Virus record (IMG/VR): IMGVR_UViG_3300029841_000117
Span: 26,681 to 90,680 of that record
Length of the DNA stretch: 64,000 nucleotides
DNA from: a virus
Taxonomy: Duplodnaviria > Heunggongvirae > Uroviricota > Caudoviricetes
Reading direction: 5' to 3' (one strand)
Below are positions 5,393 to 49,096 of this stretch, piece after piece (position 1 is the stretch's first letter; every line of letters starts with the position of its first letter). The notes under the pieces were generated by a model. It was not told where the DNA came from. It saw only the letters and a program-made list of their open reading frames with translations, and made no database searches. The position numbers and the translations under genes were made by a program.

Positions 5393-8300
5393 TTACAGAA
5401 CCTTGTCATACGCTGTCAGCTTGAAATACTCACCATCGCGCTGGTAGCCTTTACAGTAAATAATGTCACCGACTTTAACCGGCTCTTTCTTAAACTCACG
5501 ATTGAATAACGTGAACCTACTTTCCTTGCCGCTACCGATTGATTTCGTGAAGACGCTGTAAGCAAATTGCTCACCATCTCTTCTCCGAACCAGTGGCTTC
5601 ATATCTGTTATGTATAGCTTGCGTCTGTCTGCTTCATTGCCAGACACATATCCGATATAGCCCATCACATCATAGAAGTTACGGACTTTGATAATATCGC
5701 TTAGGTCGTCCATGCCAACTGCTTTTACCGCATCTTCTGCGCCACGCAAAATCGACATCACATCAAGAAGTGTGTAGCTCTTAGCTTCGCCACCAGACTT
5801 TGTAACACCGACTGCGTATCGCTTCACAATTTCTTCGAGTGGTGTTCCATCAACCTCAGTCTTTTTGATTTGCTTCGCTTGACCTCTCTTGAAGATATTA
5901 AAGAACAGGTCAACCATCCGAAGCAGCTCACGCTGATTGCCGAAATCAGAGAAGAAATCAAGCTTAATCAGAATATCAAGCTGCCTTGAGTTAATACTCG
6001 TTTTTTCATCGAGGTCTTTCAACAAATCCATAAAACAGGAATACTTGTTTTTTGCTGCAAGGTTGTACAGTTCATCGGCAAGACCAGCGCTCATATACTT
6101 GATTGACGTGAGACCCTTGGCGATGATTTTCCGCTCTCTATCGAAGAAGTATTCACCTCTGGACAACCCCCATTTAGGCAACGTAACTCGAATACCGACC
6201 TTATGGGCATAGCTTGTAATGTCAGCAGTCTTGTCCATATTGTCCCCGAAGATATTCAATGCTGCTGTTAAGAACTCCAATGGGTAATAGTAGCGCAAAT
6301 ATCCGCAGATATAACCGATGGACGAATAAGCGTCTGAGTGGTTCCACGAGAAGCCATACGCTGATGCATCCAGAATGATTTGCAGGAACGGCTTAATAAC
6401 CTCTTCGCAACGCTCTGCACTCATCTTGTACGCCTTTGAGCAATAAGCCACAAAGCGTTCTTCAATCTCCGGCAAGAGCTTTTCTGTTCCTTTTTTCTTG
6501 GCAATCGCTCGGCGGACGTTGTCTGATTCCGCGCTTGAGTAGCCGCAGAACTTAACCAAGAACTGCATAATGGTTTCCTGCATTGCGATTCGTCCTGCCT
6601 CTGGAGCAAGGAACTCATTCAGTGCGTCAAAACCGTTATCGTAAAACTCACCTTTGGCTACACTATCACGGAAGCTGGCACACGCAGGTCGGAGCAAGCC
6701 GTTACCAAACGACATCCACTTTAGCATTGAGAAATTCGGAATCTTTGACCGAGCAATATCGAGCGTGGCATCAGACATGAACTGCTTTAGATAATGCTGT
6801 GCGCTGTCAGACTCCCATTGGAAGATAAGCGTCGTATCGTCTCGGATACTTCTCCACACATCCATGTCCTCCATATCAGTGTTGTCTGGTGTCAAGCGCT
6901 CAATCCCAAGCATTTTACAGGTATCGTTGATGACACCGATATTATCCAAGCCAAGGATGTCAAGCTTGACATACATCAAGTCGTCCAGCTCTTTCATGTT
7001 AATCATGGATACCGGATACTCGGATGTGGAGATACTGCACAGACCAACCGTTTGGTCAATAGGCAGGTCACTGATAAGGACTCCACTCGGGTGTGTACCG
7101 ATGGAGACGATTGTTCCATTAACGATATCTACATACTTGAAGACATCTGGATACTTCTTTCGGATAACATCTTCATGGAGCTCCGCTTCTTTGCAGATGT
7201 GGTTTGCCACTTGAAGATAGTTCATGTCTGCGCGGTCTTTATAGAGAGCGCGGCAAACATCGCGGATTGCGCCTTTGAGTGCAATGGTATTAAAGGTAAT
7301 AATTTCTGCTGAACGAATACTCGGCAGATTCATCTTATCTTTAAGCAGGAACCGCTTAATTGTTTCTCTGTCCTTGCCAGAATAGTCCGTGTCAATATCA
7401 GCGTTTGTAACACGGGACGGATTCATAAAGCGGAAGAAATTCAAACCATACCTCATACTATCCATCTGCGTAATCCCCAAGAGATACGCAATCATGCTAC
7501 CTGAAACTGAGCCACGACCATAGCCGCACTGGATACCATTTTGCTTTTCCCACTCACGCAAGTAAGTTTGGAGCAGCATAAAGTCAATTGACTTCGTTGC
7601 CTTGTAAACATCGAACTCTTCATCGATAGTTTTCTGCAACTCTTCCTTTGTGTGATGCTTGAGTGCATATGGGTGGTTCTCAACTGCTGTCTGAATCTTG
7701 TCACGGAACGTCTTCTCTGGTTCAGAGTAGATATGTGGGTACTTTGTACCTCTATCTAATTCAAACGGCTCTACCATATCTGCCATCACATTGGTGTTTT
7801 CAATGGCTTGCATATATTCTGCCTCTGGAAGCGACCCTTGCTCTCTATATGCAGCAACTAACTCGTCGTAAGTCTTAAACTTCAAGTCCCAACGTTCTTC
7901 GCCATCAAACGTAATGTTTTTAGATGCCTGTAAGATACTTCTTCCTTTTTCATGCTCTGCATTGAGGACGTGCGTATCAGTTCCTGCAATCAAAGGGACA
8001 CCGGTACTCTTGCTAAGCAATAACAGTTTTTCGTTGTAGGTGACCTGCTTCTCATCCATGTGGTGACCGACTTCTAAGAAACAGCGGTGCTTATTTCGTT
8101 CAAGAAAATCCAGATAATACTGCTGAACCTGTTCGTCACCTTTCCCGAGAACGCCACCGACACAAGCCGTAGTGATGATAATGTTGTCAGATGTCGCAAA
8201 CAATTCGTTGAACGTGATTCGTGGGACATAGTAAAAGTGGTTGTCGGTTCTGCAGAAACTCTTAGACACAAGGCTGTTGAGTTCTAAGAACCCGTCGTAG

Positions 8301-19044: not shown

Positions 19045-19250
19045 CTCATTCTCTTCGAAACTTCGAACTTATCCTCAAGTTCTTTCGGTGTCCGTGCTTT
19101 TCCAAGCTTCTTAAACTCTCCGTCAACAAGCTCATACAGGAAATAAAACTCACGGCTCTCTTTACTGGTAAGAATAAAGCAGAGCTCATGCTCGGCATTA
19201 TAATATCCAACCCAGACTCTTTCACCTTTGGGGTATTTGGGTTCAGCCAA
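19032..19250 (-). CDS. Hypothetical small protein
   Basis: ORF overlapping its neighbours by a few nt (translational coupling). Confidence 0.3.
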   Translation of the reverse strand: MAEPKYPKGERVWVGYYNAEHELCFILTSKESREFYFLYELVDGEFKKLGKARTPKELEDKFEVSKRMRCAQ

Positions 19251-20589
19251 GAAGCTCCACCGCCCTCTGCATCAAAGCATTGTGTTCGTTTTCTAAAGCA
19301 CCCGAAATCACTTCATCTAAAAGGCTGTTAAGGATTTCGCCAACACGTTTCCCTTGTTCAATGCCGAGGTTCACAATATCTCTTCCGTTGATTTGCAAGT
19401 CTTTTAATGCGAAACACTGCTCCGCTTCTAAAACCTCAGACATAATGGAACCGAGTGCAATGCATCTTTCGATTCTGGACTCCTGTGTACCCTCTGCATG
19501 GGCAAGAATATCAGCCATCCGCACATCCAAAAACTGTGAGAACCGACGTTCACCGAGTTTATGCAGCCATTTGCGGACTGTGCGGGGTGTTGGCTCAATC
19601 ATAGTGTCGTGATAAAGCACGAGTTCAAGAACTTCCTGCTTTGTCTTATTATCGAACCGCAGTCTATCCAAAACTTGTTCTGCAATATCACGGCTTGGTA
19701 CCCCATGACCGTGGAAGTGCCCACCGTTTTCATCTTCAGTGTAGCATTGTGGCTTTCCGATGTCGTGGAGTAGTAAGGCTACCTTAACAGACACATCGGT
19801 ACCCTTGTAGTTCGCAACAGCGTGGGCAATATGCTCGTACACAGTGTATTGATGATACTTGTTGTTCTGTTCAAACCCAATGCAAGGCTCCATTTCTGGA
19901 ATAATCGTCGCAATAACATCTGAGAAATTCAGCAGCACATTTAAGATGCCGTCGCCGAGCAGCATTTTGCAAAGCTCGCCATTGATTCGCTCTGCAGCAA
20001 TACGTTTTAGCATCCAAGCATCCTTGTGGATGGCAGCGGCTGTCTGTTCTTCGATAGAAAAGCCATAGGTCGCTGCGAATCTCAGCGCTCGCAAAATGCG
20101 AAGCGCATCTTCTTCAAAACGCTCATCAGGATTGCCAACACAGCGAATAATCCCTGCTTGTAAATCATCTCTCCCGTGGAAGGGGTCAATCAATCCAGCA
20201 CTGTTGTACGCCATAGCGTTGATGGTGAAATCCCTGCGAGACAAGTCCTTATAAATGCTCTCGGTAAACTCCACATAATCAGGGTGCCTCCCGTCTGTAT
20301 AGTTTCCATCAATTCGAAACGTTGTGACCTCATACTTCCCAACAGTGCCCATGTCAACCGTTACTGTTCCATGCTGCAGCCCAGTATCAATTGTCTTTAT
20401 GCCACGACGATGCATTAGTTCCTTAACTTCGTCCGGTGTAGCAGAGGTACAGATATCCCAATCTTTTGGTTCTTTCCCAAGCAGACTGTCTCGGACACAT
20501 CCGCCAACCACATATGCCTCATGGTTTTCATATCGGAGATTCAGCAGAACTGCTCGCGCACCTTTAGGGATAGAAATCCTATGCATCAA
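19243..20589 (-). CDS. cca: tRNA nucleotidyltransferase (CCA-adding enzyme) with HD domain
   Basis: GGCVRDSLLG + DWD Pol-beta head motif of class II CCA enzymes. C-terminal HD motif LLLHDIGKP. Confidence 0.75.
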   Translation of the reverse strand: MMHRISIPKGARAVLLNLRYENHEAYVVGGCVRDSLLGKEPKDWDICTSATPDEVKELMHRRGIKTIDTGLQHGTVTVDMGTVGKYEVTTFRIDGNYTDGRHPDYVEFTESIYKDLSRRDFTINAMAYNSAGLIDPFHGRDDLQAGIIRCVGNPDERFEEDALRILRALRFAATYGFSIEEQTAAAIHKDAWMLKRIAAERINGELCKMLLGDGILNVLLNFSDVIATIIPEMEPCIGFEQNNKYHQYTVYEHIAHAVANYKGTDVSVKVALLLHDIGKPQCYTEDENGGHFHGHGVPSRDIAEQVLDRLRFDNKTKQEVLELVLYHDTMIEPTPRTVRKWLHKLGERRFSQFLDVRMADILAHAEGTQESRIERCIALGSIMSEVLEAEQCFALKDLQINGRDIVNLGIEQGKRVGEILNSLLDEVISGALENEHNALMQRAVELLG

Positions 20590-21601
20590 TCGCCCTCCTG
20601 TTTACACTCATAACGAACTCCTCAACTTTCTTCATATCCGGGTTATCTGGGAGGCTCGTGTTTTGCTTTGCATAATTGAGTCGTTTTTCAAAGTCAGAAA
20701 CCATTTCAAAAAACTCTGGTCTATATGTTCCATCTTCCAGTTGATAGTCACCCTTACGGATACTCATCAGCAGAGGCAGGTCATCACCACGATATGTGAC
20801 AATATCCTCTTTCTCCAGAATATCCAAGCAGAGAAGGTACAAGCGAATAAGATGCATCGCGTGTTTGTTCAAATGCTCATCGTCCTTCTTGTGGTTTCTG
20901 TGGTTGAGCTTCTCATACGTCCCGATAACATTCGTCAGGTCGTTGATTACACTATTGAACTCTCTGACCGGATACTTTTTAAGCTGGATATCTGCAAAAA
21001 TCTCACGGTCTAAATCCTCTCGCGGACTCTCATCTGTATAGAGAACAATGCTGCCGTTTTCAAAAATTGTGTATCGACTCTCAAATGATTTAACGGCGCC
21101 TTTCATAGAGTTGAGAATATGTTCCTCTCTTCTTGCCTGTGACAGCCTATCTCGCGCAAGAGCATTCTCCAAGCGCCGGAGCTGCTGATTCGCATAACCT
21201 CCAAAAGAATGAACTGCTCGTTTGGACAGAAACATTTTTCTGTTGGCAATCATTTCTCTGCCAATGTCTGAGATATAGAAATAGTGCTCTGGCTTACACC
21301 CAAGCATTTCAATCGTATTTGGATTACAATTTAGGAGCAGGCTCACCAGCTTATTAAAAGCATAGATTGTCGTATCCGTTTGTGTATTAACGACCTGCTC
21401 AAAGCTCGTCAGACCAAGCAAATCTGATTCGCTGTTCAACGCACACCCTCTTACATCAACATCGGATGTTTCGACGTTTGTTCCATAGGAATAGCTGCCA
21501 CCAAGCGTAAGAAAGATAATCTTGCTCCCGAGGTGCTCGTTTGTTCTAAGGAAATCATAAGCAGAACCGTTGACCATCTCTTTGATTTGCTCAATCGTCA
21601 T
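20579..21601 (-). CDS. Pol-beta-superfamily nucleotidyltransferase of unknown specificity
   Basis: GGSYSYGTNVETSDVDVRG fits the GS-x10-DxD minimal NTase signature. Long helical C-terminal region. Confidence 0.5.
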   Translation of the reverse strand: MTIEQIKEMVNGSAYDFLRTNEHLGSKIIFLTLGGSYSYGTNVETSDVDVRGCALNSESDLLGLTSFEQVVNTQTDTTIYAFNKLVSLLLNCNPNTIEMLGCKPEHYFYISDIGREMIANRKMFLSKRAVHSFGGYANQQLRRLENALARDRLSQARREEHILNSMKGAVKSFESRYTIFENGSIVLYTDESPREDLDREIFADIQLKKYPVREFNSVINDLTNVIGTYEKLNHRNHKKDDEHLNKHAMHLIRLYLLCLDILEKEDIVTYRGDDLPLLMSIRKGDYQLEDGTYRPEFFEMVSDFEKRLNYAKQNTSLPDNPDMKKVEEFVMSVNRRAIDA

Positions 21602-21605
21602 AACC

Positions 21606-22820
21606 TTACTCCTTTTCTTCTCTCGCCCTGAGTGCTGAAATGCACCCAGCTAAAATCTGTGCAGCTCTTACGGCTTCATCAGCCGTGTTTTTCTTTGAGA
21701 ACGAAATTCTGATGGAAGACCGCGCTTCATCTTTGGACAATCCCATTGCAGATAAAACGTGACTTGGTTCTGCTTCGTGACTCCTACACGCAGACCCGGC
21801 AGAAACACAAACTCCCTTGCCGTCCAACATAAGCAAGAGCGTTTCGCCATCGACGCCGTCCATTCTCAAGTTAATTGTCTTTCCGGGTGTAAGAATCGAC
21901 ATACCATTTACATGGACGCAGCTTTCATCACCCGTATCTTTAAGCGCTTCATTCAGCGCCATGAAAAATCGCTGTTTCAATGTTGAAACCCACACCGTAT
22001 CTTCGTGCAAACTCTTCGATGAAATCTCACAAGCCTTTCCGAATCCTACGATACCAGCAACATTTTCTGTTCCACCCCTCAGCCCGAACTCTTGCTCTGA
22101 ACCACCATATACAATGGGCGTAAGTTTGGACTTATCCTTTGCGTACAAAGCTCCAATGCCTTTACACCCATGAATCTTATGTGATGACACCGAAAGGAAA
22201 TCGCAACCGATTTTCACTACATCAATAGGATAGCATCCTGCAGCTTGCACGCAATCTGTGTGGAACAGAATCCCGCGCTTCATGCAAATCGTTCCAATAT
22301 CTTCGATTGGGTTGATTGCGCCTGTTTCATTGTTCGCAAACATCACAGATACGAGCCCCGTATCTGCCCGTAATGCGTCCTCAATGACAGCAGGAGAGAC
22401 CCTGCACTCACTGGATACCGGAATATACTCTACATGAAACCCGTCTTTTATAAGCGATTCTGCGGCTCGTAGGACGGAATCATGCTCAACAGCCGATACC
22501 AAAATGTGCGTCTTACCGATACTCTTCAGATAGTCCTTCAAACCCCGAAAGACTAAATTGTTTGCTTCGCTACCACCAGATGTAAAAATGATTTGCTCTG
22601 GTTCTGCGTTGATTAAAGCTGCCACTTGCGCTCTGGCTTTCTGCACAGCCTCATTCGCAGCTCGTCCAAACTTATAGAGGGTTCCTGCATTACCATACTC
22701 CGTTGTCAGGTATGGCATCATTGCTTCAAGAACCCGTTCATCCATTTGTGTGGTGGCAGCATTGTCAAGGTAAATCACAAGTGACCACTCCTTTTGTTTT
22801 ATATGATGCACTAATACCAC
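21606..22820 (-). CDS. iscS: Cysteine desulfurase (IscS/NifS class V aminotransferase)
   Basis: IYLDNAATTQ N-terminus, PLP-lysine block SVSSHKIHGCKG and a C-terminal active-site Cys loop. Confidence 0.8.
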   Translation of the reverse strand: MVLVHHIKQKEWSLVIYLDNAATTQMDERVLEAMMPYLTTEYGNAGTLYKFGRAANEAVQKARAQVAALINAEPEQIIFTSGGSEANNLVFRGLKDYLKSIGKTHILVSAVEHDSVLRAAESLIKDGFHVEYIPVSSECRVSPAVIEDALRADTGLVSVMFANNETGAINPIEDIGTICMKRGILFHTDCVQAAGCYPIDVVKIGCDFLSVSSHKIHGCKGIGALYAKDKSKLTPIVYGGSEQEFGLRGGTENVAGIVGFGKACEISSKSLHEDTVWVSTLKQRFFMALNEALKDTGDESCVHVNGMSILTPGKTINLRMDGVDGETLLLMLDGKGVCVSAGSACRSHEAEPSHVLSAMGLSKDEARSSIRISFSKKNTADEAVRAAQILAGCISALRAREEKE

Positions 22821-22866
22821 TCATCAAGCGCCTTTCAAAGCCTTGTGGCACAAGTGATTCAAGCCA

Positions 22867-23457
22867 TCATTTATTTCTAACAGCCTCGTTATGCGAATTT
22901 GCCGCAATGATTTCATCAAGCGTCCGAGGCGTGTAGTCCATCCACGGCATCATTGCTCCGACATTAAACATCTGGCAAGGTGTCGTGTACAGTTCCTCCA
23001 TCAGATACTTGTCATGCTCCATCATGTTCCACTCGAAAGAATTGTGGACGTGTCCATACAAGTGGAAGGAACCGTAAAAGTGATTCTTAAAGCACGGAAT
23101 TGGGTAATGGCAAAGAATCACTGTTCGACCGCTGTCCTTCACTTCGAGATACTCTGTGACCTTAACAAACTCCCGCAAGAACTTGTTGTCATTGCACCGG
23201 TCATGGTTCCCTTTAATCAGGAACTTCTGTCCTTTTAAGGAACGCAAAATAGGGATAGCATCTTGTGCCTTACACCAGAACATATCCCCAAGAACATACA
23301 CAATATCGCCCGGAGAAACCACTGCATTCCACCGGTCAACCAGTGCTTCGTCCATCTCCAGAAGCGATTTGAACGGACGGTTATCAAAGGCAATCACGTT
23401 TGCATGACCATAATGCCAATCTGAAATGTAGAACTGTTTATTGCTTTGTTCTTGCAT
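22867..23457 (-). CDS. Calcineurin-like metallophosphoesterase
   Basis: ISDWHYGH, GDMF, GNHD and a conserved His-rich C-terminus. Confidence 0.6.
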   Translation of the reverse strand: MQEQSNKQFYISDWHYGHANVIAFDNRPFKSLLEMDEALVDRWNAVVSPGDIVYVLGDMFWCKAQDAIPILRSLKGQKFLIKGNHDRCNDNKFLREFVKVTEYLEVKDSGRTVILCHYPIPCFKNHFYGSFHLYGHVHNSFEWNMMEHDKYLMEELYTTPCQMFNVGAMMPWMDYTPRTLDEIIAANSHNEAVRNK

Positions 23458-23740
23458 TTTTTAACTCCTCGATTCTGTCTGCCGCAAGAACGAGCAGCCA
23501 CTTTGGAACACGACTCTCATCTCCCATTCGTCCCGGTGCAAGCGTTGTTCCGTATTGACGGAGGAGAATGACCACTTCGTCATCCAGAATCTGCTTGGCT
23601 ACGTCGTGCAGGTTTCCGATTGCCTGTAATCTTTGCGGCTCGCGCGACTTTCTTTTAAGGTACTCCGGCTTGCTTGCTGGACATTCATAGCAAGAATACA
23701 TCTCATAAATACCACAGCCACCGTCTTTATAGCAACTCAT
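23438..23740 (-). CDS. Hypothetical Cys-containing small protein
   Basis: ORF in the array. Confidence 0.3.
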   Translation of the reverse strand: MSCYKDGGCGIYEMYSCYECPASKPEYLKRKSREPQRLQAIGNLHDVAKQILDDEVVILLRQYGTTLAPGRMGDESRVPKWLLVLAADRIEELKNARTKQ

Positions 23741-23751
23741 ATTTTTCCTCC

Positions 23752-24066
23752 TTAGAACGGAAGGCGTTCGTCTTGCTCAACACGAATAAGCTCCCGAACC
23801 CTTAGCAAAAACTCTTCCTCATCCAAAGCTTGGATGTCTTGGTATCGTAGATACTCAATCAATTCATGGACAGCCGTTGTCAGGGCTATATCGATTTTGT
23901 TTTCGATATCTGTCTGCTGGTTCAGGAACTCTTCTGTGTGCTGCCTGTTTCGTTCTATTGTGGTGACTAAATCTCCTCGTGTATTTTCGAGGCGGCATTC
24001 TAAACGTCCGAGTTTCTCATAGATATCGCAAATACAAGTAGCAACTTCAGCCGGTGTCATATCCAT
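23752..24066 (-). CDS. Hypothetical protein
   Basis: ORF in the array. Confidence 0.35.
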   Translation of the reverse strand: MDMTPAEVATCICDIYEKLGRLECRLENTRGDLVTTIERNRQHTEEFLNQQTDIENKIDIALTTAVHELIEYLRYQDIQALDEEEFLLRVRELIRVEQDERLPF

Positions 24067-24881
24067 TTTTCAACATACTCTCTTTCTTGCGAGAAAATGG
24101 GAGGCTCTCGGTCAATAACCCAACGGTTTCTGAAAACTTCAACCGTTTCAGTCTTATTGAGGATAGAGACGGTCTCTCTAACTCTTGTTTTGTAACAAGC
24201 CGAACCACGCTTACAGTCAACAGGGAAGTCATTCCAGTTGATACCGCAGTCCTTCCAGAGCATATCTTGAATAACGTTACAGCTTTTACCATGAAGCTCT
24301 TTCTGGCTAAAGTTTGCCTGCCCAACTGCCTCGATACTGTTGCGGGTTGCATCTTGCTGACGCCAAATCAGGCAGTTGCAAACTTCGTCTTTGGGAATAG
24401 AAAAAACTCTGGCATCAAACATGGCTGTACCCATCTTTGCGACCAGAGTTTCAATGTACTTATTTGTGCCATTGTTACTGTTGCGCATCGCTTCTGGGAA
24501 GTTTTTCCACAGCTCAGCAGTATAGGCATTTGAAAAAGCGAGCGTAGCCATTGAAGCGGAAACGCTGCACATCTTTTGGATGTTGTATCCGAACCATGCA
24601 TCCGTTGTGATTGTCGCATAGTCTGTAAGCACCAACGTGATTTCATCTGACTGCGTATATCCGAAGACACAGCCCTGAATGTTTTCACACAGGTACTTCA
24701 TTGTATTTTGCATCGTTGTCATCAAGATACGGTCAAATGGCTTTTCCATACCTCTTGTGAATGTATGAAACGCCTTGCCGTCCACTCTGATAATGGTTGG
24801 AATCCGACGAGTCAAATAGTTGCGAGCAATATTCTCGTAGCCTTTCATTCTGTCGCCGAGTGAATCATATTTCTTACTCAA
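24057..24881 (-). CDS. Thg1-like protein (tRNA-His guanylyltransferase family 3'-5' nucleotidyltransferase)
   Basis: TIIRVDGKAFHTF, GYTQSDEITLVL and the SVSASMATLAFSNAY block align with the human THG1 motifs VVVRLDGRNFHRF, AYGQSDEYSFVF and THVASQFASSY. Confidence 0.75.
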   Translation of the reverse strand: MSKKYDSLGDRMKGYENIARNYLTRRIPTIIRVDGKAFHTFTRGMEKPFDRILMTTMQNTMKYLCENIQGCVFGYTQSDEITLVLTDYATITTDAWFGYNIQKMCSVSASMATLAFSNAYTAELWKNFPEAMRNSNNGTNKYIETLVAKMGTAMFDARVFSIPKDEVCNCLIWRQQDATRNSIEAVGQANFSQKELHGKSCNVIQDMLWKDCGINWNDFPVDCKRGSACYKTRVRETVSILNKTETVEVFRNRWVIDREPPIFSQEREYVEKWI

Positions 24882-24924: not shown

Positions 24925-25425
24925 TTATGATGCGAAGTATCCAGACGGCATCTCAACAAATGGATATGCCGGAGTGGGAATCAGGCACAGACCAGTTTCT
25001 GTGCAAGCATTTGGTTGGTTCATGTCAGTTGCTTGTTTGAGGTCGAAGATGATGACGCCTTCATCTGCGAAGCGAACACCCGGCGCCTTTAACGGAACAT
25101 TCATCTCGACACCAATACCGGCTTTTACAAGCGCCGTCAGCGCACGATTTCCAACCGGAATCATTCTCTTCTTGGGCTTTCCGTCTTTCGTAGAATCCGA
25201 TGTAAAGAACTTCATCGCGTTCGGCGTTTCTTTGGCACAAGGCTGCAACGCAATCTGCGTTTTGTCTCTGCTGATAAACAGCCGCACAAACGGCGGATAG
25301 CCAATCTCGGAAGCTGTTGCAAGGTTAAAGGAGATGCGGTTCTTCAGGATTCGAACCTCTGCAATACTGAATGTACGAGGAACACCAACCACATCAAAGT
25401 TGTCTAAGATACTCATTGTTTCCAT
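24925..25425 (-). CDS. Hypothetical protein
   Basis: ORF in the array. Confidence 0.35.
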   Translation of the reverse strand: METMSILDNFDVVGVPRTFSIAEVRILKNRISFNLATASEIGYPPFVRLFISRDKTQIALQPCAKETPNAMKFFTSDSTKDGKPKKRMIPVGNRALTALVKAGIGVEMNVPLKAPGVRFADEGVIIFDLKQATDMNQPNACTETGLCLIPTPAYPFVEMPSGYFAS

Positions 25426-26476
25426 CCTTTCGAGGTTTAATTACAAAAAAGCCATCCAATATCCGAGGGACATCAGATGCAGACAAATCTGCCACCTCAT
25501 CAACTGATGGAACCGGAACGACATTTTCGCCCTTTAGAATCTGTTGCACCTCAAGCCAAAGTTCTCTCGGAATAATCGCTTCGTGATAGCCTTGGATAAA
25601 AAACTGGTTAGCACGTCCGTCGTTCCGAATAGAGCGATGCGAAAAGATATCCACGGTAACGGTCTTCTGCATCAAAACGTCACCGGAATATTTCTCATTT
25701 GTCAAGATTGTCTTTACCGTAGAGTATGTCCACTGACCACCTCGTGGGGATGGAATACCTTGCTGGTTTAAGATGTAGCAGATTTCAGGAATCGTTTTGT
25801 CATCGTAGAACATTTGATAAATCAGCCGCACAACATTCGCTTCAGGTTCGTAAATCTCCAGCAGCCTCTTATCTCTGGTGTACCCATAGAGGTCTGCGAG
25901 CTTTGGGAGCCCCTTCTCAAATCTTTTCTGGAACCCCCATTTCACGCTCTCAGACTTTGCTTCTGACTCGCCTTGCGCAATAGCAGCCATAACGACCATC
26001 AGAAGCTCGCCGGTCTGTGTCAAGGTATTGATTGCAATATCCTCAAAATAAACAGCAACCGGCTTGTCCAGTGCCTTGAGCATACGCACAGTGGCAACGC
26101 AGTCAACAACATTTCGTGCGAACCTTGCAATGTTCTTCACGATAATCATGTCGATTTTGCCTGCTTTACAATCATCAATCATCCGTAAGAAGTCCGTGCG
26201 TTTCTTTACGGAAGTCCCAGAAATCCCTTCATCGGCGTAGATGTCATAAAGCCGCCACCCCGGATGCTTCGACACATATTCTTTGTAATACTGGCACTGC
26301 AGCTCGTAGCTTGCGAGCTGGTCTTTGTTGTCCGTACTGACTCTGCAATACGGCGCGACCACCAATGGGTCTTCTTCGCTGTGCTCAGTAGTCTTTTTAA
26401 TCGAAGCGGGAATACACTGGACTTGTGCGCTATGCTCATAAGCATTGCGTATCTCATTTTGTTTATTTGTTTCCAA
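25394..26476 (-). CDS. Serine recombinase (resolvase/invertase catalytic domain + recombinase domain)
   Basis: Catalytic-serine block APYCRVSTDNKDQLASYELQ followed by a recombinase-domain-like region. No obvious C-terminal zinc ribbon. Confidence 0.7.
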   Translation of the reverse strand: METNKQNEIRNAYEHSAQVQCIPASIKKTTEHSEEDPLVVAPYCRVSTDNKDQLASYELQCQYYKEYVSKHPGWRLYDIYADEGISGTSVKKRTDFLRMIDDCKAGKIDMIIVKNIARFARNVVDCVATVRMLKALDKPVAVYFEDIAINTLTQTGELLMVVMAAIAQGESEAKSESVKWGFQKRFEKGLPKLADLYGYTRDKRLLEIYEPEANVVRLIYQMFYDDKTIPEICYILNQQGIPSPRGGQWTYSTVKTILTNEKYSGDVLMQKTVTVDIFSHRSIRNDGRANQFFIQGYHEAIIPRELWLEVQQILKGENVVPVPSVDEVADLSASDVPRILDGFFVIKPRKDGNNEYLRQL

Positions 26477-26527
26477 CTTGTGTCACCCCTTTCGAATATG
26501 TATCTGTAACTTAGGGTGACCTATCGA

Positions 26528-26687
26528 GATGCGGGTGGGGATTTGCACCCCACAACCATTAGTCGTGCACTTTCAACACGATTGACGCTTGCAACCGCCG
26601 CGCAGTATGTCTTGCGCCGCCCTGACTGCCGTTTCTATGGGTGTTTATTAACACCAGCAGCGCGTCTACCTGTTCCGTCACCGCATC
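26528..26687 (-). other. Oversized tRNA-like element A (160 nt)
   Basis: Minus strand: acceptor GATGCGG pairs perfectly with the 3' CCGCATC. D-arm-like ACGGAACAGGTAGACGCG. A T-arm-like hairpin GTGGGGTGCAAATCCCCAC with G at loop position 55. About 115 nt lie between the D-arm and T-arm. No CCA. Confidence 0.4.
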
Positions 26688-26691
26688 ATCG

Positions 26692-26991
26692 TTATCTCAG
26701 GGTATTGAACAGAGGAGGAGCTGTTACCTGCGCAGGAGTATCTCGCTCAATGGCGAAGATTTTCCAGTCAAAGTTCTTACCATACCGTTCAGCCCACGCA
26801 ATGTCCTCAAGAACCACGGCGTTCTCATTCAGGTCTTCGCCTTCAAGATAAGACTCTTTGACTTCGTCAGGAGAGATATCGTAAACCTCGGCGACACGTC
26901 GGCACATCTCATCATGCGCCGCATCGTGCGTATCGAAATACTCAGGCTCGGAAATTTCTCGCTCCATTACTTCAATCAGCATATACTTCAT
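26692..26991 (-). CDS. Hypothetical acidic protein
   Basis: ORF in the array. Confidence 0.35.
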   Translation of the reverse strand: MKYMLIEVMEREISEPEYFDTHDAAHDEMCRRVAEVYDISPDEVKESYLEGEDLNENAVVLEDIAWAERYGKNFDWKIFAIERDTPAQVTAPPLFNTLR

Positions 26992-27019
26992 AGCATTTTC
27001 TCCTTATAAAACTCAGGTT

Positions 27020-27328
27020 TTATTCGTAACATACGAACACATGACCCACGAAATCACCGCCACCAATGAGATACGAGCCAACATATTTCAGTCTGTCCTT
27101 CTCATCTTCCCGGATTTCCTCGCCGGTCATTTTTGTTACAACCTTCATTGGATATGTCTGATTCTCGGTATCAACCATGCACCAAAGGCAAGGTCGAATC
27201 ACGTCTTGAACATCCACATGAAGAACTTGTTCGTTGCATCTTGCAACGCGGTCATCGAAGTACAACATCGGGATATTGATTACCTGTTCTGCTGTAATCT
27301 CCAATGGATACTTGTAGATTACTCTCAC
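27020..27328 (-). CDS. Hypothetical protein
   Basis: ORF in the array. Confidence 0.35.
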   Translation of the reverse strand: MRVIYKYPLEITAEQVINIPMLYFDDRVARCNEQVLHVDVQDVIRPCLWCMVDTENQTYPMKVVTKMTGEEIREDEKDRLKYVGSYLIGGGDFVGHVFVCYE

Positions 27329-27337
27329 GTTTGCCTC

Positions 27338-27886
27338 CTATAGATTTAGAGATTCCAAAAGCTCTCGTTGCGGCGAGAACTCTTTATACAATTCGACCTC
27401 CTTGGTCAGCCGAGCCAAGATTGCTTCTTCCTTGACCGCGTACCTGCCCAAGTAAACTTTCTTATGGTTATAAGTAATGCTGGCAACCCACTTCTTACGT
27501 TGTTTGTCGAAGTAGACGCCAGCGACACCAGACGTATTGCACGAATACAGGCTGCGGTTTCTGTCGTTCTCAGAACGCTCGCAACACCGCAAGTTTTTCT
27601 TCCTGTTATCCGCTTTGTTTTTGTTGATGTGGTCAACGCATTGACCGGGCTTTGCGTGCATCACAAGTCGATGGAACCGGACAAAGCGTCGAACGCCATT
27701 ATAAAAGTAGCTGCTGACAAGATAACCGTCCTTGTCACAGTACCAACTGTCGCGCCCCTTGATAAGGGGGAGGTCTTCCAAATCAAAAAGGAATTCGGTC
27801 GTCTTGATTCGCAGGATACCGTATGTATCGAGAAGTTCAATCCGCATTATGTTCTGTCCAATCCGGCTTGAAGGCGTGTAAAACAT
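27338..27886 (-). CDS. HNH homing endonuclease with AP2 DNA-binding domain
   Basis: HNH_3-like block CVDHINKNKADNRKKNLR and AP2-like block SGVAGVYFDKQRKKWVASITYNHKKVYLGRY. Confidence 0.6.
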   Translation of the reverse strand: MFYTPSSRIGQNIMRIELLDTYGILRIKTTEFLFDLEDLPLIKGRDSWYCDKDGYLVSSYFYNGVRRFVRFHRLVMHAKPGQCVDHINKNKADNRKKNLRCCERSENDRNRSLYSCNTSGVAGVYFDKQRKKWVASITYNHKKVYLGRYAVKEEAILARLTKEVELYKEFSPQRELLESLNL

Positions 27887-28034
27887 GGTATGCCATCTCG
27901 GTAACTATCTCCAACCTAATTCCAATAGCGTCTGCCATTGTCTTATTCACACTACACGCCAAGAACCTGTCGAAAGACCCGTTCTCTTCGTAATCACAAA
28001 TGGCATTCTCAATCAAGTGTTCTGCATCACTCAT
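27837..28034 (-). CDS. Hypothetical small protein
   Basis: Short ORF overlapping the HNH gene start by about 50 nt. Confidence 0.25.
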   Translation of the reverse strand: MSDAEHLIENAICDYEENGSFDRFLACSVNKTMADAIGIRLEIVTEMAYHVLHAFKPDWTEHNAD

Positions 28035-28151
28035 TCTTCACCACCTCCCACAACATTGTTTGTAACCGCTTTCCGCATCGGTCGTTTCTCTAAACCCCTC
28101 AACCGATGTGCATGGGCATTGGTCGTAAACCAGAACTCACGAGCGTTGCTT

Positions 28152-28176
28152 GCAATGCGAGTGAGTAAAAGAAAAA
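28152..28176 (-). terminator. Rho-independent terminator
   Basis: Minus strand GCCCGC-tac-GCGGGC followed by GGTTTTTCTTTT. Confidence 0.45.
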
Positions 28177-28225
28177 CCGCCCGCGTAGCGGGCTTCTGGT
28201 TTACGAGCATAGTGCCGAATTCTTG

Positions 28226-28245
28226 CTTTTGCCTTTGGCGAAAAG
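28226..28245. repeat. Dispersed hairpin family, copy 1: CTTTT-GCCTTTGGCG-AAAAG
   Basis: Same 10-nt loop as the copies at 49077 and 50604, with a different but complementary stem. Lies about 50 nt downstream of a leftward gene stop. Confidence 0.5.
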
Positions 28246-28293
28246 CTGCTGAGAGAAATATGTATAACAGCAAATCTACAAAGCGGTCGTTGC

Positions 28294-28545
28294 CTACATC
28301 CATTCGGAGACAGTCCAGTATGTCAAACTGCCATTCTCTTCGTACTCGTATTTTGAAATAACCTCATCCACAGAATAGTAATCGCCATCAGCAGGAATGA
28401 GCTTATCACCATCCCAAGAACAATAACCAACCAACAATCCCTGTTCAATTCTCTCGCTGCTTAGATACGGCAAAAGGCTTTCTGGATAGTTGGTTCTAAC
28501 CATAATTTCAACTGGATGATTTGGAAGGACATCCCTGACTGTCAT
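28294..28545 (-). CDS. Hypothetical protein
   Basis: ORF in the array. Confidence 0.35.
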   Translation of the reverse strand: MTVRDVLPNHPVEIMVRTNYPESLLPYLSSERIEQGLLVGYCSWDGDKLIPADGDYYSVDEVISKYEYEENGSLTYWTVSEWM

Positions 28546-28750
28546 TGGTTCTTCTCCTGTTAATTACCCCATCGATATGTCCAACTTTAATGAAGCCTTC
28601 CGGCTCGTCCAAGTCAATCGCATATCCGTTATTGATTTTAATGAACGATGTGCCATCCACAACCCACAGGTCACCGAAGCATGGATTCAAATAGATGTCA
28701 CCATCTTGGTATTTTTCGTTCTTGTGCTCGTTGCGCTCAGTCACAGCCAC
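28508..28750 (-). CDS. Hypothetical protein
   Basis: ORF in the array. Confidence 0.3.
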   Translation of the reverse strand: MAVTERNEHKNEKYQDGDIYLNPCFGDLWVVDGTSFIKINNGYAIDLDEPEGFIKVGHIDGVINRRRTNDSQGCPSKSSS

Positions 28751-28771
28751 ACCTCCAATCGGTCATCTTAA

Positions 28772-28884
28772 ATGTGGGCGAGGATTTGCACCTCGCATGG
28801 AAAGAAAATTGGTTTGACGGGTTTATCAGGTCTGCAGCACTGTCTCTCCCACCCGCTCGGCGTCTACCTATTCCGCCACCACAT
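28772..28884 (-). other. Oversized tRNA-like element B (113 nt), paralogue of element A
   Basis: Minus strand: D-arm TGGCGGAATAGGTAGACGCC identical in pattern to bacterial tRNA-Leu. T-arm-like CGAGGTGCAAATCCTCG. Acceptor ATGTGGT/CCCACAT pairs 6 of 7. About 60 nt between the arms have no canonical anticodon stem-loop. Confidence 0.4.
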
Positions 28885-28895
28885 ATGTTCTATGT

Positions 28896-29216
28896 TCAGC
28901 TTAATCCATCCACAAAATCCCACTCGATATTGTAACGGAATTCATCGTTCAAAATTCCGTCCAGCAGTTCGTCGATATACTCCTCATCGTCTCGGTCTGT
29001 CGGGACGGGAATAATCATCTCAAACTCTGGAGCAAACGTGGACGGTTTCACCCAAATCGTTCTTTTCTCCATAGCTGGAACCTCCTTGTCGCATAAGGGG
29101 CAATACCCTGCAGTTTCGCCAAACTGTATATTCACATGATGCCCGCATCTTGGGCAGTGGATAATGCCGCTCATGCAAATCAACCTTTCACAAATCTCTT
29201 TCCGCACAGCGGACAA
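28896..29216 (-). CDS. Zinc-ribbon hypothetical protein
   Basis: CPRCGH...CPLC motifs. Confidence 0.35.
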   Translation of the reverse strand: MSAVRKEICERLICMSGIIHCPRCGHHVNIQFGETAGYCPLCDKEVPAMEKRTIWVKPSTFAPEFEMIIPVPTDRDDEEYIDELLDGILNDEFRYNIEWDFVDGLS

Positions 29217-29383
29217 CTGCGTATCTCGACAATGTCTTGGGTTGTAAAACCACCGTCATCGTCAAGCACTCTTACTCTCAACATCCCTTGTCTGTTTACG
29301 GACATCTCAATGCCGCTATATTCAGCGGTCTGGTTCATTGGAACAAAATCATTTGTCCCAGATTCACAATATGGACATTTCAT
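29180..29383 (-). CDS. Zinc-ribbon hypothetical protein
   Basis: CPYC...CPLCG motifs. Confidence 0.35.
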   Translation of the reverse strand: MKCPYCESGTNDFVPMNQTAEYSGIEMSVNRQGMLRVRVLDDDGGFTTQDIVEIRSCPLCGKRFVKG

Positions 29384-29586
29384 CTGACTACCCTCGTCTC
29401 TCTTTGCAAGAACTTTTTAATGCAGTCTCCACAATCATAGCTGACCTTGCAATTGTTCCCGCAACAATCGCCATCGCTCACAAAAGAGCAAAGCACATTC
29501 TCGCAAGTATCCCCGCCGCAAAACTCTATCAGCTCATCGGTATTCATAGTGGCTATTTTCCTTTTGATTTCCTCGAAATTAGTCAT
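29380..29586 (-). CDS. Small Cys-rich hypothetical protein
   Basis: 10 Cys in 68 aa. Confidence 0.3.
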   Translation of the reverse strand: MTNFEEIKRKIATMNTDELIEFCGGDTCENVLCSFVSDGDCCGNNCKVSYDCGDCIKKFLQRETRVVR

Positions 29587-29590
29587 CGAA

Positions 29591-30370
29591 TTAACCTTTC
29601 ATATCTTTCCAGTAGCAGTAGAGACACCCGTAGGGGCATCTCGTCTTATGTTTCAGCAGTTCAGTTTTCCCTGCATAACACATACAGCCCTTTCGTTGAT
29701 AGCCAGCCCCGCTTGATTCTGCATCCTCAGAAAATCCGAGCAGATTGAGGTCGTAGTCTGAAATGCAGCCACAGGCAATCGGCTCCGTAAGACCGGGTTC
29801 TGCACAGGACTCAATTCGGAGAACTTTGCCGTTATCCAGCCCTTCCCAGAACTGCTTTGCTTGCCGCAGCATATCGTCCACTTTTGAAAGCTGTGCTTGA
29901 GACGGAGCGAAACCGCTATCGCCATAGGGAAGCGGCAATCCAGCCTTTTTGAACCGGCTTCTTGCGTGTGGATACATATCAATAACGCTCACTCTGTATC
30001 GCTGAAATCCCATTTCCATAAAGGAAATCATTGTACGGTATGCAACTGAAAGTCCTTTCTCTGTGGGGATGATGGGGTCGATGCGAATGACGATTTTCTC
30101 CATCGGGAACCCAGCTTTAACCAACTCCATAATTGCGGCAAACTCCTCGTATGGAGTTGGTACATTAGGTTCCAAAGCAGAGTGCCCGTATCCAGTGATT
30201 GTTGCATGGACAATGAGTCTGTCTTTGTGTTCAAGAGCGGCATCGAAGAAATCCGGCGACACACACTTCGTAATTAGAACAGCAGCATCAACTCTGTCTA
30301 ATTTCTCGACCCAAGACAAATCAACGCCTGCGTCTCCCGCTTCTGTAATTCCAATCTTGTATAATGCCAT
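29591..30370 (-). CDS. Hypothetical protein with C-terminal Cys cluster (possible Fe-S, DUF1848-like)
   Basis: C-terminal GCMCYAGKTELLKHKTRCPYGCLYCYW. The family assignment is uncertain. Confidence 0.4.
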   Translation of the reverse strand: MALYKIGITEAGDAGVDLSWVEKLDRVDAAVLITKCVSPDFFDAALEHKDRLIVHATITGYGHSALEPNVPTPYEEFAAIMELVKAGFPMEKIVIRIDPIIPTEKGLSVAYRTMISFMEMGFQRYRVSVIDMYPHARSRFKKAGLPLPYGDSGFAPSQAQLSKVDDMLRQAKQFWEGLDNGKVLRIESCAEPGLTEPIACGCISDYDLNLLGFSEDAESSGAGYQRKGCMCYAGKTELLKHKTRCPYGCLYCYWKDMKG

Positions 30371-46490: not shown

Positions 46491-46566
46491 TGGTCTGGGT
46501 GAGAGGACTCGAACCCCCGACATCTTGCTCCCAAAGCAAGCGCACTACCATCTGTGCTACACCCAG
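46491..46566 (-). tRNA. tRNA-Pro (anticodon TGG), CCA encoded
   Basis: Manual cloverleaf. Acceptor CTGGGTG/CACCCAG, anticodon arm CTTGC-TTTGGGA-GCAAG, T-loop TTCGAGT. Confidence 0.8.
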
Positions 46567-46595
46567 ATATAATGGTTTTGTTTCCGAACACACAC

Positions 46596-46656
46596 GCACT
46601 ACTGATGGGTTCGAACCATCCTCACCATAAGCATCGCCATCAATGCTTAGTAGTGC
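46596..46656 (-). tRNA. Degenerate 61-nt tRNA-like gene lacking an anticodon arm (probable pseudo-tRNA)
   Basis: Acceptor GCACTAC/GTAGTGC (7/7), D-arm AGCA-TTGATGGCGA-TGCT, T-arm GATGG-TTCGAAC-CCATC. Only 9 nt lie where the anticodon and variable arms should be. No CCA. Confidence 0.35.
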
Positions 46657-46694
46657 GTGCCGGGGCAAAAAGGAAAACGGATATGTCAGTCCGT

Positions 46695-46770
46695 TGGAGC
46701 TGGTGACAGGGCTCGAACCCGCGACCCAGTGAGTACAAATCACTTGCGCTACCAATTACGCTACACCAGC
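46695..46770 (-). tRNA. tRNA-Thr (anticodon TGT), CCA encoded
   Basis: Acceptor GCTGGTG/CACCAGC, anticodon arm AGTGA-TTTGTAC-TCACT. Confidence 0.8.
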
Positions 46771-46814
46771 GTGCACCCTCGTCTTTCCGAGGTGTCAGCT
46801 TTTAGCTAAAAGGC

Positions 46815-46883
46815 TGCTGATGACTGGACTTGAACCAGCGGCTCGCACTTCCGGTGCTGCTCTACCAACTGAGCTACATCAGC
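46815..46883 (-). tRNA. Atypical 69-nt tRNA-like gene (standard acceptor, D and T arms; anticodon arm reduced to GCAC-CGGAA-GTGC; no CCA)
   Basis: GCTGATG-TA-GCTCAGTTGGTAGAGC ... GCTGG-TTCAAGT-CCAGT-CATCAGC. Four nt short of a canonical tRNA. Confidence 0.4.
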
Positions 46884-46997
46884 ATAGATACGCCCTGCGC
46901 CCGTAGGACTCCGTGTGCACCCGGCTGTGTCTCTTACAGAGATAACAGTTGAGTGATGAACTAACCGTACAAACGTAAGCATGACCAACAGAGCAGA

Positions 46998-47073
46998 TGG
47001 AGCTGGAACTCGGAGTCGAACCGAGAACCCACGCTGTACGAAAGCGTCACTCTACCAGTTGAGCTATTCCAGC
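46998..47073 (-). tRNA. tRNA-Thr (anticodon CGT), CCA encoded
   Basis: Acceptor GCTGGAA/TTCCAGC, anticodon arm ACGCT-TTCGTAC-AGCGT. Confidence 0.8.
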
Positions 47074-47232
47074 ATATATGCCATCCTGAAACTATGGCGA
47101 TGTCATTAACACCGCCAATACAAACTCACTATGATGGCAGTTTTGATAGCGTGAAAGGAGAATCATGGATAAATCATCGTGGCACAAGGGATTGCAGGGA
47201 TAAAAAACAAGCTCTAATACCGAAGATGATTT

Positions 47233-47307
47233 TGGCAGGGGCAGTAGGATTCGAACCTACGAATAACGGAGTCAAAGTCCGCTGTGTTACCGCTTCACCA
47301 TACCCCT
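47233..47307 (-). tRNA. tRNA-Gln (anticodon TTG), CCA encoded
   Basis: Acceptor AGGGGTA/TGCCCCT, anticodon arm GCGGA-CTTTGAC-TCCGT, T-arm GTAGG-TTCGAAT-CCTAC. Confidence 0.8.
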
Positions 47308-47425
47308 ATATCTGCAGGCTCATGCAGCGGCGTCCCGCCAAACCAACCTGTAACCGACTTCCAGAGCAGGCTCTGGCGTGTCGTAAAGGCATTTCCTTTA
47401 ACGCATAATTTAATGGTTTCTTACT

Positions 47426-47502
47426 TGGAGCGGCGTACCAGACTCGAACTGGCACCACCGGTTTGGAAGACCGGAGTGCTAACCGTTGAACACCAACGCC
47501 GC
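47426..47502 (-). tRNA. tRNA-Gly (anticodon TCC), CCA encoded
   Basis: Acceptor GCGGCGT/ACGCCGC, anticodon arm CCGGT-CTTCCAA-ACCGG. Confidence 0.8.
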
Positions 47503-47688
47503 ATGGTCGGCTTCTCGCTTAGATTGTCACACGCTACCGGCAACTACGCTCCGAAAAGTCGTAGCCCCTATTCCGTCAGGTCAAACCGGTCTTGACGCAT
47601 CAAGACAAGCGCAGTTTTCAGCAAGCATTTTCATTCTTTGTGAGGTAAGCCGATAATCGCTCACATCAGTTGGGAGCTACCCAACAAC

Positions 47689-47764
47689 TGGCAGGGGTGA
47701 ATGGATTCGAACCACCATCTGACGGTTTTGGAGACCGCTATGTTAGCCATTGCACCACACCCCT
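47689..47764 (-). tRNA. tRNA-Trp (anticodon CCA), CCA encoded
   Basis: Acceptor AGGGGTG/CACCCCT, anticodon arm GCGGT-CTCCAAA-ACCGT. Confidence 0.8.
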
Positions 47765-47854
47765 TGGCGGAGTGGACAGGACTTGAACCTGCACATCCTT
47801 TCGGATTACTCACGGTTTAGCAAACCGCTGCCTTACCGTTAGGCTTACCACTCC
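47765..47854 (-). tRNA. tRNA-Ser (anticodon GCT), type II, CCA encoded
   Basis: Acceptor GGAGTGG/CCACTCC, anticodon arm GCGGT-TTGCTAA-ACCGT, long variable arm. Directly abuts tRNA-Trp. Confidence 0.8.
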
Positions 47855-48543: not shown

Positions 48544-49076
48544 CTGCAGTCCATATGTATATTCTGTTCTGGTCTCTTCGGTTATCTCCTGTAGCGACGG
48601 GATTTAGATGAGCTGAAAGCGAGTTCAAATCCCAAGCGGCGATGATGAAATCATTGGGAGACAATGGGTTCGACGGTCGCTCATCGGATGGAGATGACAA
48701 GACATCGAGAATAGTTTTAATGAGCTGTACAGCGAGCTTAGGCGCCTTCGCAGCAGGCTGCGGGCGGGGAATTGTGCTGTCCAGCAAAGTGATACTTCAG
48801 CCTTTGGCGTGAAGCACATTCCTTACGAAATGTTATTCACTGCAAATGATAATTTGATTATCCTGTAATCTACATGGAGGTAGCTCCCTACGAGGAGGAG
48901 CTCCGGCACCCAGTGACTGGCGTGCGACATCTTTTGGTCGTCTCGTTGAATCCATTGTGGCACAATGGATTCAAGTGATTCGGGCTGCTCACCGTGTGGT
49001 TCGCAGCCTCGAAGGATGACTTGAGTCTGCAGGTGAATGCGCCTCCGGGGAGGTTTTCCTCCCTATCAAGTTGTTA

Positions 49077-49096
49077 CTTATGCCTTTGGCGATAAG
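49077..49096. repeat. Dispersed hairpin family, copy 2: CTTAT-GCCTTTGGCG-ATAAG, inside a ~60-nt repeat also present upstream of the RT
   Basis: Lies 50 nt downstream of the RT stop. The flanking TTGTTACTT and CCTCCGGGG..CCTCCC blocks are shared with the copy at 50560-50625. Confidence 0.55.

Follow-up and report, generated by a model that had tools for sequence, protein, structure and literature searches.

Two tRNA-Leu-like elements of a Caudoviricetes genome belong to a widespread family of non-decoding RNAs in phages of Bacillota

Mimics of transfer RNA (tRNA), such as transfer-messenger RNA (tmRNA), the Y RNAs and viral tRNA-like structures, have each opened new biology. In tmRNA, helix P2 sits at the position of the tRNA variable arm, and RNAs of the YrlA type have been described in bacteria and in a number of phages, in the neighbourhood of rtcB and other RNA-repair genes. 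Mitochondrial tRNAs and mascRNA are precedents for tRNA-like folds that serve as cleavage punctuation. Here, two tRNA-like elements, A and B, are described from a 64,000-nucleotide (nt) stretch of DNA of a Caudoviricetes virus (IMG/VR record IMGVR_UViG_3300029841_000117, positions 26,681 to 90,680), referred to below as the window. Both elements belong to a conserved, structured and strand-specific RNA family that is unable to decode, and this family is large, unannotated and spread across phages of Bacilli and Clostridia.

Element A occupies positions 26527–26687 of the window (161 nt including the discriminator) and is a complete, slightly aberrant family member; element B, also complete, occupies positions 28770–28885 (116 nt including the discriminator). 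The original prediction, made from the sequence of the window alone, had placed both within 1–2 nt of these limits. Every gene around A and B is on the minus strand, as are both elements. In A, the 5′ strand of the acceptor stem, GAUGCGG (26681–26687), forms 7/7 pairs with CCGCAUC (26528–26534). The D arm ACGGAACAGGUAGACGC (26662–26678) matches the family motif with A10 in place of G10, can be written as (A/G)CGGAACAGGUAGACGC, and is followed by a variable centre of 108 nt (26554–26661), which in folds forms a 6-bp CUGCUG/CGGCAG stem around a small hairpin and then 3–4 more hairpins. The T arm is GUGGGG-UGCAAAU-CCCCAC (26535–26553), and the acceptor 3′ strand with the discriminator lies at 26527–26534. 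In B, the 5′ strand UAUGUGG (28879–28885) forms 6/7 pairs with positions 28771–28777, giving the stem (U)AUGUGG/CCACAU(U), a helix that covaries family-wide. The D arm GCGGAAUAGGUAGACGC (28860–28876) has a 3-bp stem and a tRNA-Leu-type loop with G18 and G19; the variable centre of 63 nt (28797–28859) is closed in a constrained fold by the helix GGAGAGA/UCUUUCC, which stops 2 nt (AU) short of the T stem; the T arm GCGAGG-UGCAAAU-CCUCGC (28778–28796) has a 6-bp stem and G at position 55; and the acceptor 3′ strand with the discriminator lies at 28770–28777. CCA is encoded in neither element.

A and B have a common core: an acceptor stem of 7 bp, U8-G9, a D arm of the tRNA-Leu type, a T stem of 6 bp and the loop UGCAAAU (G55). 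This confirms the earlier view of them as paralogous, tRNA-Leu-like elements with an unusual T loop. The hallmarks of the family, i.e. a covarying 7-bp acceptor stem, UG, a GCGGAAUAGGUAGACGC-type D arm, a variable centre, CAU, the T arm and no CCA, are found in both, with the exceptions of G10 and the CAU junction in A, which has an A10.C25 mismatch and the junction AAUGGUU. The space between the D and T arms is filled by a centre of 60–108 nt, dissimilar in sequence between A and B. As had been suggested, neither centre contains an anticodon arm: the folds show at this position a 6-bp stem around 23 nt in A and no stem in B.

The D-arm motif CGGAANAGGTAGACGC, with up to two mismatches allowed, has 2 matches in the 64-kb window versus 0.08 expected, and exact matches to the T-arm motif GGTGCAAATCC occur across the window at A and B only. 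A covariance model of the family, R1, gave 84.2 bits (E 8e-21) for B and 69.3 bits (E 8e-17) for A, both of which are in the R1 seed, and next in rank in the window were its two genuine tRNA-Leu genes (27 and 17 bits). The original prediction had proposed that the elements be examined with ARAGORN in intron mode and with Rfam. ARAGORN made no call at A or B in default mode or with introns allowed, and Rfam 15 gave no match to them at gathering scores or at E≤10 (positions 26400–29000), neither element reaching the Rfam tRNA gathering score (29 bits, RF00005). The single-sequence folding energies of A and B are ordinary (z = −1.5 and −0.2); hence, the case for structure rests on comparison with other sequences. 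Comparison of either centre with the window revealed chance-level antisense matches only, and a scan for sigma-70-type promoters around A and B gave none that was convincing.

Other members were collected by two scans of viral contigs for AGGTAGACGC followed, after 45–75 or 100–130 nt, by GGTGCAAATCC. Each scan returned at least 120 loci, and removal of duplicates left 205 distinct elements; the family core is present in more than 240 viral contigs. For most loci the search pattern prescribed some bases of the D arm and of the T loop, whose invariance is therefore partly by construction. A set of 132 diverse representatives was used for folds and ends, and 132 elements have a downstream open reading frame (ORF). 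Among species-representative genomes, a stricter pattern found 93 loci, mostly prophage, with phage genes within the fetched 8 kb at 57 of them; almost all are from Bacillota, the carriers including Paenibacillus, Bacillus, Lactobacillaceae, Leuconostoc, Weissella and many metagenome-assembled genomes of Clostridia.

The sequences of the members bear out the fold. Among 203 elements there are 112 distinct acceptor 5′ strands, which form at least 6 of the 7 pairs in 181 elements, and the T stem is fully paired in 185. In the R1 seed alignment of 39 sequences, which were chosen for an intact acceptor stem with the T stem unselected, 98.2% of cells are paired, as compared with 74% in shuffles and ~36–44% in slid registers. 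Double-sided changes number 160 in this alignment versus 40.7 in shuffles, and compensatory change is seen at 7/7 acceptor pairs and 4/6 T-stem pairs. As the D stem was fixed by the search patterns, its covariation was read from divergent copies via core hidden Markov models, in which GCG/CGC is replaced by GUG/CAC. When position 55 was left free in the search, UGCAAAU was still found in 89/103 matches; inspection of listed examples of the remainder showed ~5 terminal T loops with U55, most others being internal second T arms. Thus, G55 is a real hallmark of the family and not a search artefact. In the seed alignment, every sequence has A15 and U48, which are positioned for a Levitt pair; a Levitt pair A15-U48 is typical of bacterial tRNA-Leu. 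Sequence affinities mark the family RNA as derived from tRNA-Leu: the best non-family matches of R1 are the tRNA-Leu genes of the window, and the 5′ core of the family also matches annotated cyanophage tRNA-Leu genes.

BLAST searches against cultured phages showed that ~100 records per query carry the family core. The carriers are phages of Listeria, Bacillus, Enterococcus, Leuconostoc, Lactobacillus, Geobacillus and Paenibacillus, including SPP1, phi3T, SBSphiJ and phiFL2A, and RNA annotation at the match is absent from all records among the matches listed. Megablast of positions 25000–30000 of the window against cultured phages gave no match. In SPP1, the element (82.5 bits with R1; NC_004166.2, 6647–6756, plus strand) lies between gene 9 and scaffold gene 11 and underlies a doubtful minus-strand 'gene 10' (6525–6734) that is flagged as conflicting with its conceptual translation. 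The phi3T element (73.4 bits; KY030782.1, 50191–50326, minus strand) lies just after yonN and overlaps the hypothetical gene phi3T_57. Both 'gene 10' and phi3T_57 are probably mis-annotations over the RNA element. The SBSphiJ1 element (72.3 bits) is within a tRNA cluster, and in phiFL2A, where the element occupies an 800-nt gap between the ArpU and terminase genes, R1 matches its 3′ part only (30.3 bits). Two to four copies with differing centres are present per phage at loci L088, L181, L156 and L069, as well as in the window. Rfam searches of the window and 18 related loci at gathering and permissive thresholds revealed no family that overlaps any element, the matches near elements being limited to tRNAs, ROOL, drum, hammerhead and DUF3800-VIII. 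No description of the RNA family was found in the literature, where it may still be an anonymous entry in one of the large motif catalogues, such as that of 10,006 viral candidate structured RNAs. The word 'tRNA' does not occur in the 2018 re-annotation of SPP1 (PMC6316719).

The setting of the elements differs between phages. In phages that bear tRNA genes, the element is found inside the tRNA array; where a tRNA gene lies within 1 kb (59 loci), the nearest one is on the same strand as the element in all 59 cases and within 500 nt in 50. In temperate phages without tRNA genes, the element is located between an ArpU/RinA-like late regulator gene and the HNH, TerS and TerL genes; elements of phages without tRNA genes are thereby placed directly before the late or packaging operon or within it. 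No tRNA gene was called in the fetched locus for 138 of the 205 elements, mostly from temperate phages of ~40 kb. No conserved partner protein was found within 6 kb, the largest protein cluster being TerL (27/205 elements), and no downstream gene is conserved, since the clusters of downstream ORFs among the 132 elements that have one contain at most 5 members.

Other structured RNAs were seen in the same surroundings. A ROOL RNA (L020, 4042–4646) is in the same tRNA array as a family member, and a drum RNA (L151, 2574–2692) and a type II hammerhead ribozyme (L159, 1036–1099) are in or near family-bearing tRNA arrays. Both SPbeta (L363, 3014–3079) and phi3T (L362, 3863–3928) have a DUF3800-VIII RNA motif upstream of yonK, where the late operon transcribed by YonO begins. 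A passage of PMC5467207 refers to an 'unannotated non-coding RNA' upstream of yonK in SPbeta, which may be this motif. That RNA was considered as evidence for expression of the family and rejected, as the SPbeta record contains no family member and has DUF3800-VIII there instead.

CCA is encoded in 3 of the 132 representatives. At the discriminator position, 47% have A and 32% have U; the base that comes next is U in 50%, which fits the substrate preference of RNase Z in Bacillus. Terminator-like hairpins are present within 120 nt downstream of 15% of the representatives and upstream of 4%.

The central insert is structured, hypervariable and 45–130 nt long. In constrained folds of the 132 members, the position of the anticodon arm is taken by 0–15 unpaired nt or by a mini-hairpin of 4–5 bp with a loop of 3–7 nt, often CUUA-loop-UAAG; many members have no stem here, or one of 4 bp capped by a tetraloop. 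Neither a 7-nt anticodon loop nor a splice motif is conserved across these members. In 67/132 representatives, exactly 2 nt (AU) separate the last central helix from the T stem, so that the centre exits where class II tRNA has its long variable arm. A second, canonical T arm of the GGUUCGAAUCC type is present in the centre of some members (L134, L179, L192, L235, L173, L237, L151, L159, L069 and L196), and such RNAs would present two T loops. Beyond the exit position and the occasional second T arm, no further conservation was found in the centre. Alignment of one subfamily by MAFFT with RNAalifold was too poor for a centre consensus and recovered the core only.

The layout from A to the serine recombinase gene described below is common to the close relatives L055, L188, L214, L222 and L233, and B is also present in L055, L188, L214 and L233, L222 being the exception. 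In L188, L214 and L233, A carries G10, by which the 10-25 pair is restored. In B, a compensatory change of C11-G24 to U11-A24 is seen in the D stem of L214, and a G.U pair of the centre-closing helix is G-C in L214 and L233, with the helix kept. A differs at 2–6 positions in L055, L188 and L222, although the 2-kb flanks are 99.7–100% identical, and these substitutions are mostly in the core (G10/A10, D-loop position 16, T stem and discriminator); the pattern resembles that of a local hotspot for substitutions or of a copy in decay. A faster change in centres than in flanks was not established, as there are too few independent pairs and the excess is confined to the window lineage and to the core of A.

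The gene for a serine recombinase (25394–26476, minus strand) starts 50 nt from A, which lies upstream of it, and a protein with HNH_3 and AP2 domains (27338–27886) is encoded between A and B, in agreement with the original prediction. The roles suggested for these genes did not stand. The HNH-AP2 gene interrupts neither element, being ~650 nt from A and ~880 nt from B, and its bracketing by A and B is seen in close relatives only. Among the 132 elements followed by an ORF, the recombinase gene is the downstream neighbour of 5, and these five are all of the window lineage. The recombinase and the endonuclease are incidental neighbours outside the system, a false lead of which the window is now cleared. 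At 360 aa, the recombinase, which has Resolvase and Recombinase domains, is smaller than expected of a phage integrase, and a zinc-ribbon/coiled-coil part was not detected; the 3′ end of its gene overlaps a 166-aa ORF (24925–25425, minus strand) without a family match, and the pair (24925–26476) may represent one gene that is split or truncated.

A contiguous module for tRNA maturation and repair (19243–24881, minus strand) follows just downstream of A and the recombinase gene and consists of genes for a Thg1-like 3′-5′ polymerase (24057–24881), a metallophosphoesterase (22867–23457), a class V aminotransferase/cysteine-desulfurase-like protein (21606–22820), an RlaP nucleotidyltransferase (20579–21601) and a CCA-adding enzyme with an HD domain (19243–20589). 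This neighbourhood is suggestive, yet it is confined to the window lineage; it is lineage-specific because most family carriers are small temperate phages. On the other side, a strong intrinsic-terminator-like hairpin, GCCCGC-UAC-GCGGGC with a U run (28177–28193, minus strand), is found inside the mechanically called ORF 28031–28303, which is therefore probably not a gene; given this hairpin, the small genes downstream of B may have a short transcript of their own.

Elsewhere in the window, ARAGORN finds a dispersed array of 13 ordinary tRNA genes (46491–58291, minus strand). The tRNA-Leu genes of the window do encode CCA, unlike A and B. A tRNA at 46815–46883 is called by Rfam and not by ARAGORN, and tRNA-Leu(caa) at 57346–57429 is called by ARAGORN and is below the Rfam gathering score. 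Three RAGATH RNAs on the minus strand exceed their Rfam gathering scores: RAGATH-36 (60957–61113), RAGATH-4 (63394–63524) and RAGATH-16 (63700–63771).

On balance, and with belief only somewhat outweighing doubt, A and B are interpreted as genes of a phage-encoded, tRNA-Leu-derived, non-decoding tRNA mimic that would mature like a tRNA and act in trans with a variable arm. The RNA would be transcribed with its neighbours, be released by RNase P and RNase Z in the manner of a tRNA without CCA, and persist as a stable L-shaped RNA of 95–180 nt. Its constant 'handle' would be bound by a host or phage tRNA-binding factor, G55 and the absent anticodon would keep it out of normal translation, and the variable arm would provide a lineage-specific function, which would explain the occurrence of two to four copies with unrelated centres in one phage. 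Several observations weigh against this interpretation. The ends are not typical of tRNA: pair 1-72 is G-C in only 31% of representatives, and the acceptor helix can often be extended by 1–3 pairs past 7 bp, above a rough estimate of chance. The variation of the discriminator disfavours a single aminoacylation identity, which, given the variable acceptor stem as well, seems unlikely for the family. There is no motif common to the central arms, which might be tolerated insertions rather than functional modules, and the invariance of bases in the D arm and T loop is in part built into the search patterns. A itself carries core-weakening changes, has diverged faster than its flanks in near-identical relatives, and may be a decaying copy. 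Finally, the sole hint of a transcript that was followed, the SPbeta non-coding RNA, does not concern the family.

In another interpretation the element is a cis-acting punctuation mark, the tRNA-like fold being a cut site for RNase P and RNase Z in polycistronic late or tRNA-array transcripts, and the excised RNA has no function. This would agree with the location of elements within or at the head of operons (between gene 9 and gene 11 in SPP1, between ArpU and terS-terL in phiFL2A, and after yonN in phi3T), with the low frequency of terminator-like hairpins downstream, and with freely varying acceptor sequences and unconserved centres. For cleavage, however, an ordinary tRNA-like fold would suffice; neither a near-universal G55 nor a retained tRNA-Leu tertiary core nor large compensated centres would be needed, and dense tRNA arrays already supply many cleavage sites. 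The specific change to G55, the retention of the tertiary core while the acceptor sequence varies freely, and the presence in some phages of several copies with differing centres therefore favour a function of the RNA itself, and punctuation as the whole explanation is considered unlikely; a role as a cleavage signal may exist alongside the proposed function in trans. The RNA could alternatively be a non-decoding leucine acceptor or a ligand of leucyl-tRNA synthetase (LeuRS), with a role in amino-acid donation, as a sponge for the enzyme or in its regulation. Bacterial LeuRS ignores the anticodon, and A73 is its main identity element; loss of the anticodon arm alone would not block recognition, the D arm and the A15/U48 positions are as in bacterial tRNA-Leu, and the nearest non-family matches of R1 are tRNA-Leu genes. 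With A as the discriminator in fewer than half of the representatives, CCA not encoded, no constraint on the first base pair or on the acceptor stem as a whole, and an elbow altered by G55, such a role is judged distinctly improbable.

The proposals of the original prediction are less probable still. An intron-containing, split or permuted tRNA-Leu, the centre of which is removed and the halves rejoined (e.g. by RtcB) to give a decoding tRNA, could be imagined from the Thg1-like, RlaP and CCA-adding/HD genes just downstream of A and from the 6-bp stem at the anticodon-arm position in A. ARAGORN with introns of up to 200 nt (-i0,200) reported 0 genes in the A–B region, and its tRNA calls overlap only 1 of the 203–205 family members; the simple stem with a tetraloop, or the absence of any stem, at the anticodon position in many members, the lack of an anticodon loop or splice motif, the large share of loci with no called tRNA and the absence of a repair-gene cluster among conserved neighbours within 6 kb all point away from splicing. 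The order of the arms is canonical (acceptor 5′, D, centre, T, acceptor 3′), which excludes permutation, and this explanation is held to be very unlikely. The same low standing is given to the view that the recombinase next to A uses the elements as attachment or recombination sites that arose from tRNA, or that they are neutral tRNA pseudogenes, decayed through the action of a homing endonuclease in the form first put forward. The closeness of A to the recombinase start and the relaxed-looking core substitutions in A would fit it, whereas recombinase adjacency is a trait of the window lineage, the two acceptor halves covary with each other over more than 100 acceptor sequences, which indicates selection on the RNA fold, and compensatory changes preserve the core across hundreds of unrelated phages of Bacilli and Clostridia.

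If A and B encode a trans-acting mimic as proposed, the family may, more tentatively, represent a modular class of RNAs in Bacillota phages, in which a translationally inert tRNA-Leu handle is combined with a fast-evolving arm. Working in trans, the RNA would be a decoy for, or an inhibitor of, tRNA-directed host factors or defences, or an adaptor that delivers a tRNA-binding enzyme to lineage-specific targets. Such RNAs would amount to a new kind of counter-defence or host-takeover RNA in phages, present even in SPP1. The family is abundant, lies outside Rfam 15, is missed by ARAGORN and is unannotated in the tractable phages SPP1, phi3T and SBSphiJ. Naming it mends the annotation of these genomes and provides a candidate for contact between phages and the host machinery for tRNA processing, tRNA sensing or tRNA-targeting defence.

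Among known RNAs, bacterial class II tRNA-Leu shares with the family the 7-bp acceptor stem, U8, the 3-bp D stem with an AAU(U/A)GGUAGA loop, A15/U48, G19/C56 and an extra arm just before the T stem, and family members are co-oriented with tRNA genes. The features of canonical tRNA that the family has are thus the 7-bp acceptor stem, the D arm with G18 and G19 and a T arm, the stem of which is 6 bp. In contrast to tRNA-Leu, the family has no anticodon arm of 5 bp and 7 nt, its T stem is 6 bp instead of 5 bp, G55 replaces U/Ψ55, CCA is not encoded, the discriminator is not fixed, and neither the Rfam tRNA model nor ARAGORN matches.

Several non-decoding RNAs resemble the family in part. YrlA and other bacterial Y RNAs are also non-decoding tRNA mimics with D-arm-like and T-arm-like elements. 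However, the YrlA module is circularly permuted, its acceptor is closed by a loop and its ends form the Ro60-binding stem, whereas the family has the canonical order and an open acceptor end; no Rfam family of this type matched at E≤10, and there is no conserved neighbouring protein within 6 kb. In the mascRNA and menRNA signals and in engineered 'tRNA scaffolds', as in the family, an embedded tRNA-like fold could direct cleavage by RNase P and RNase Z. Those RNAs are eukaryotic or artificial, and in the scaffolds the cargo hairpin replaces the anticodon arm, whereas the family is a natural phage RNA with its own hallmark (G55 and the 6-bp T stem) and carries its cargo at the variable-arm position. 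ROOL, GOLLD and drum share the tRNA-array habitat in phages, as exemplified by the ROOL and drum RNAs above, and differ in having no similarity to the family in sequence or structure, in being present in Rfam and in not being tRNA-shaped.

The tRNA-like domain of tmRNA likewise has the top half of a tRNA without an anticodon arm, and its long insert is connected through a helix where the variable arm would be, immediately 5′ of the T arm. Unlike tmRNA, the family keeps a full D stem, its centre is too short and variable for pseudoknots and a tag reading frame, and the G3.U70 identity element is lacking, pair 3-70 being UA, AU, CG or GC, with G.U in 1/39 sequences. ARAGORN in tmRNA mode (-m) found nothing and the Rfam tmRNA model did not match at the elements; a tag frame was not searched for systematically. 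The family is therefore closest to the tRNA-like domain of tmRNA in architecture and to tRNA-Leu in sequence, and lacks the defining features of both.

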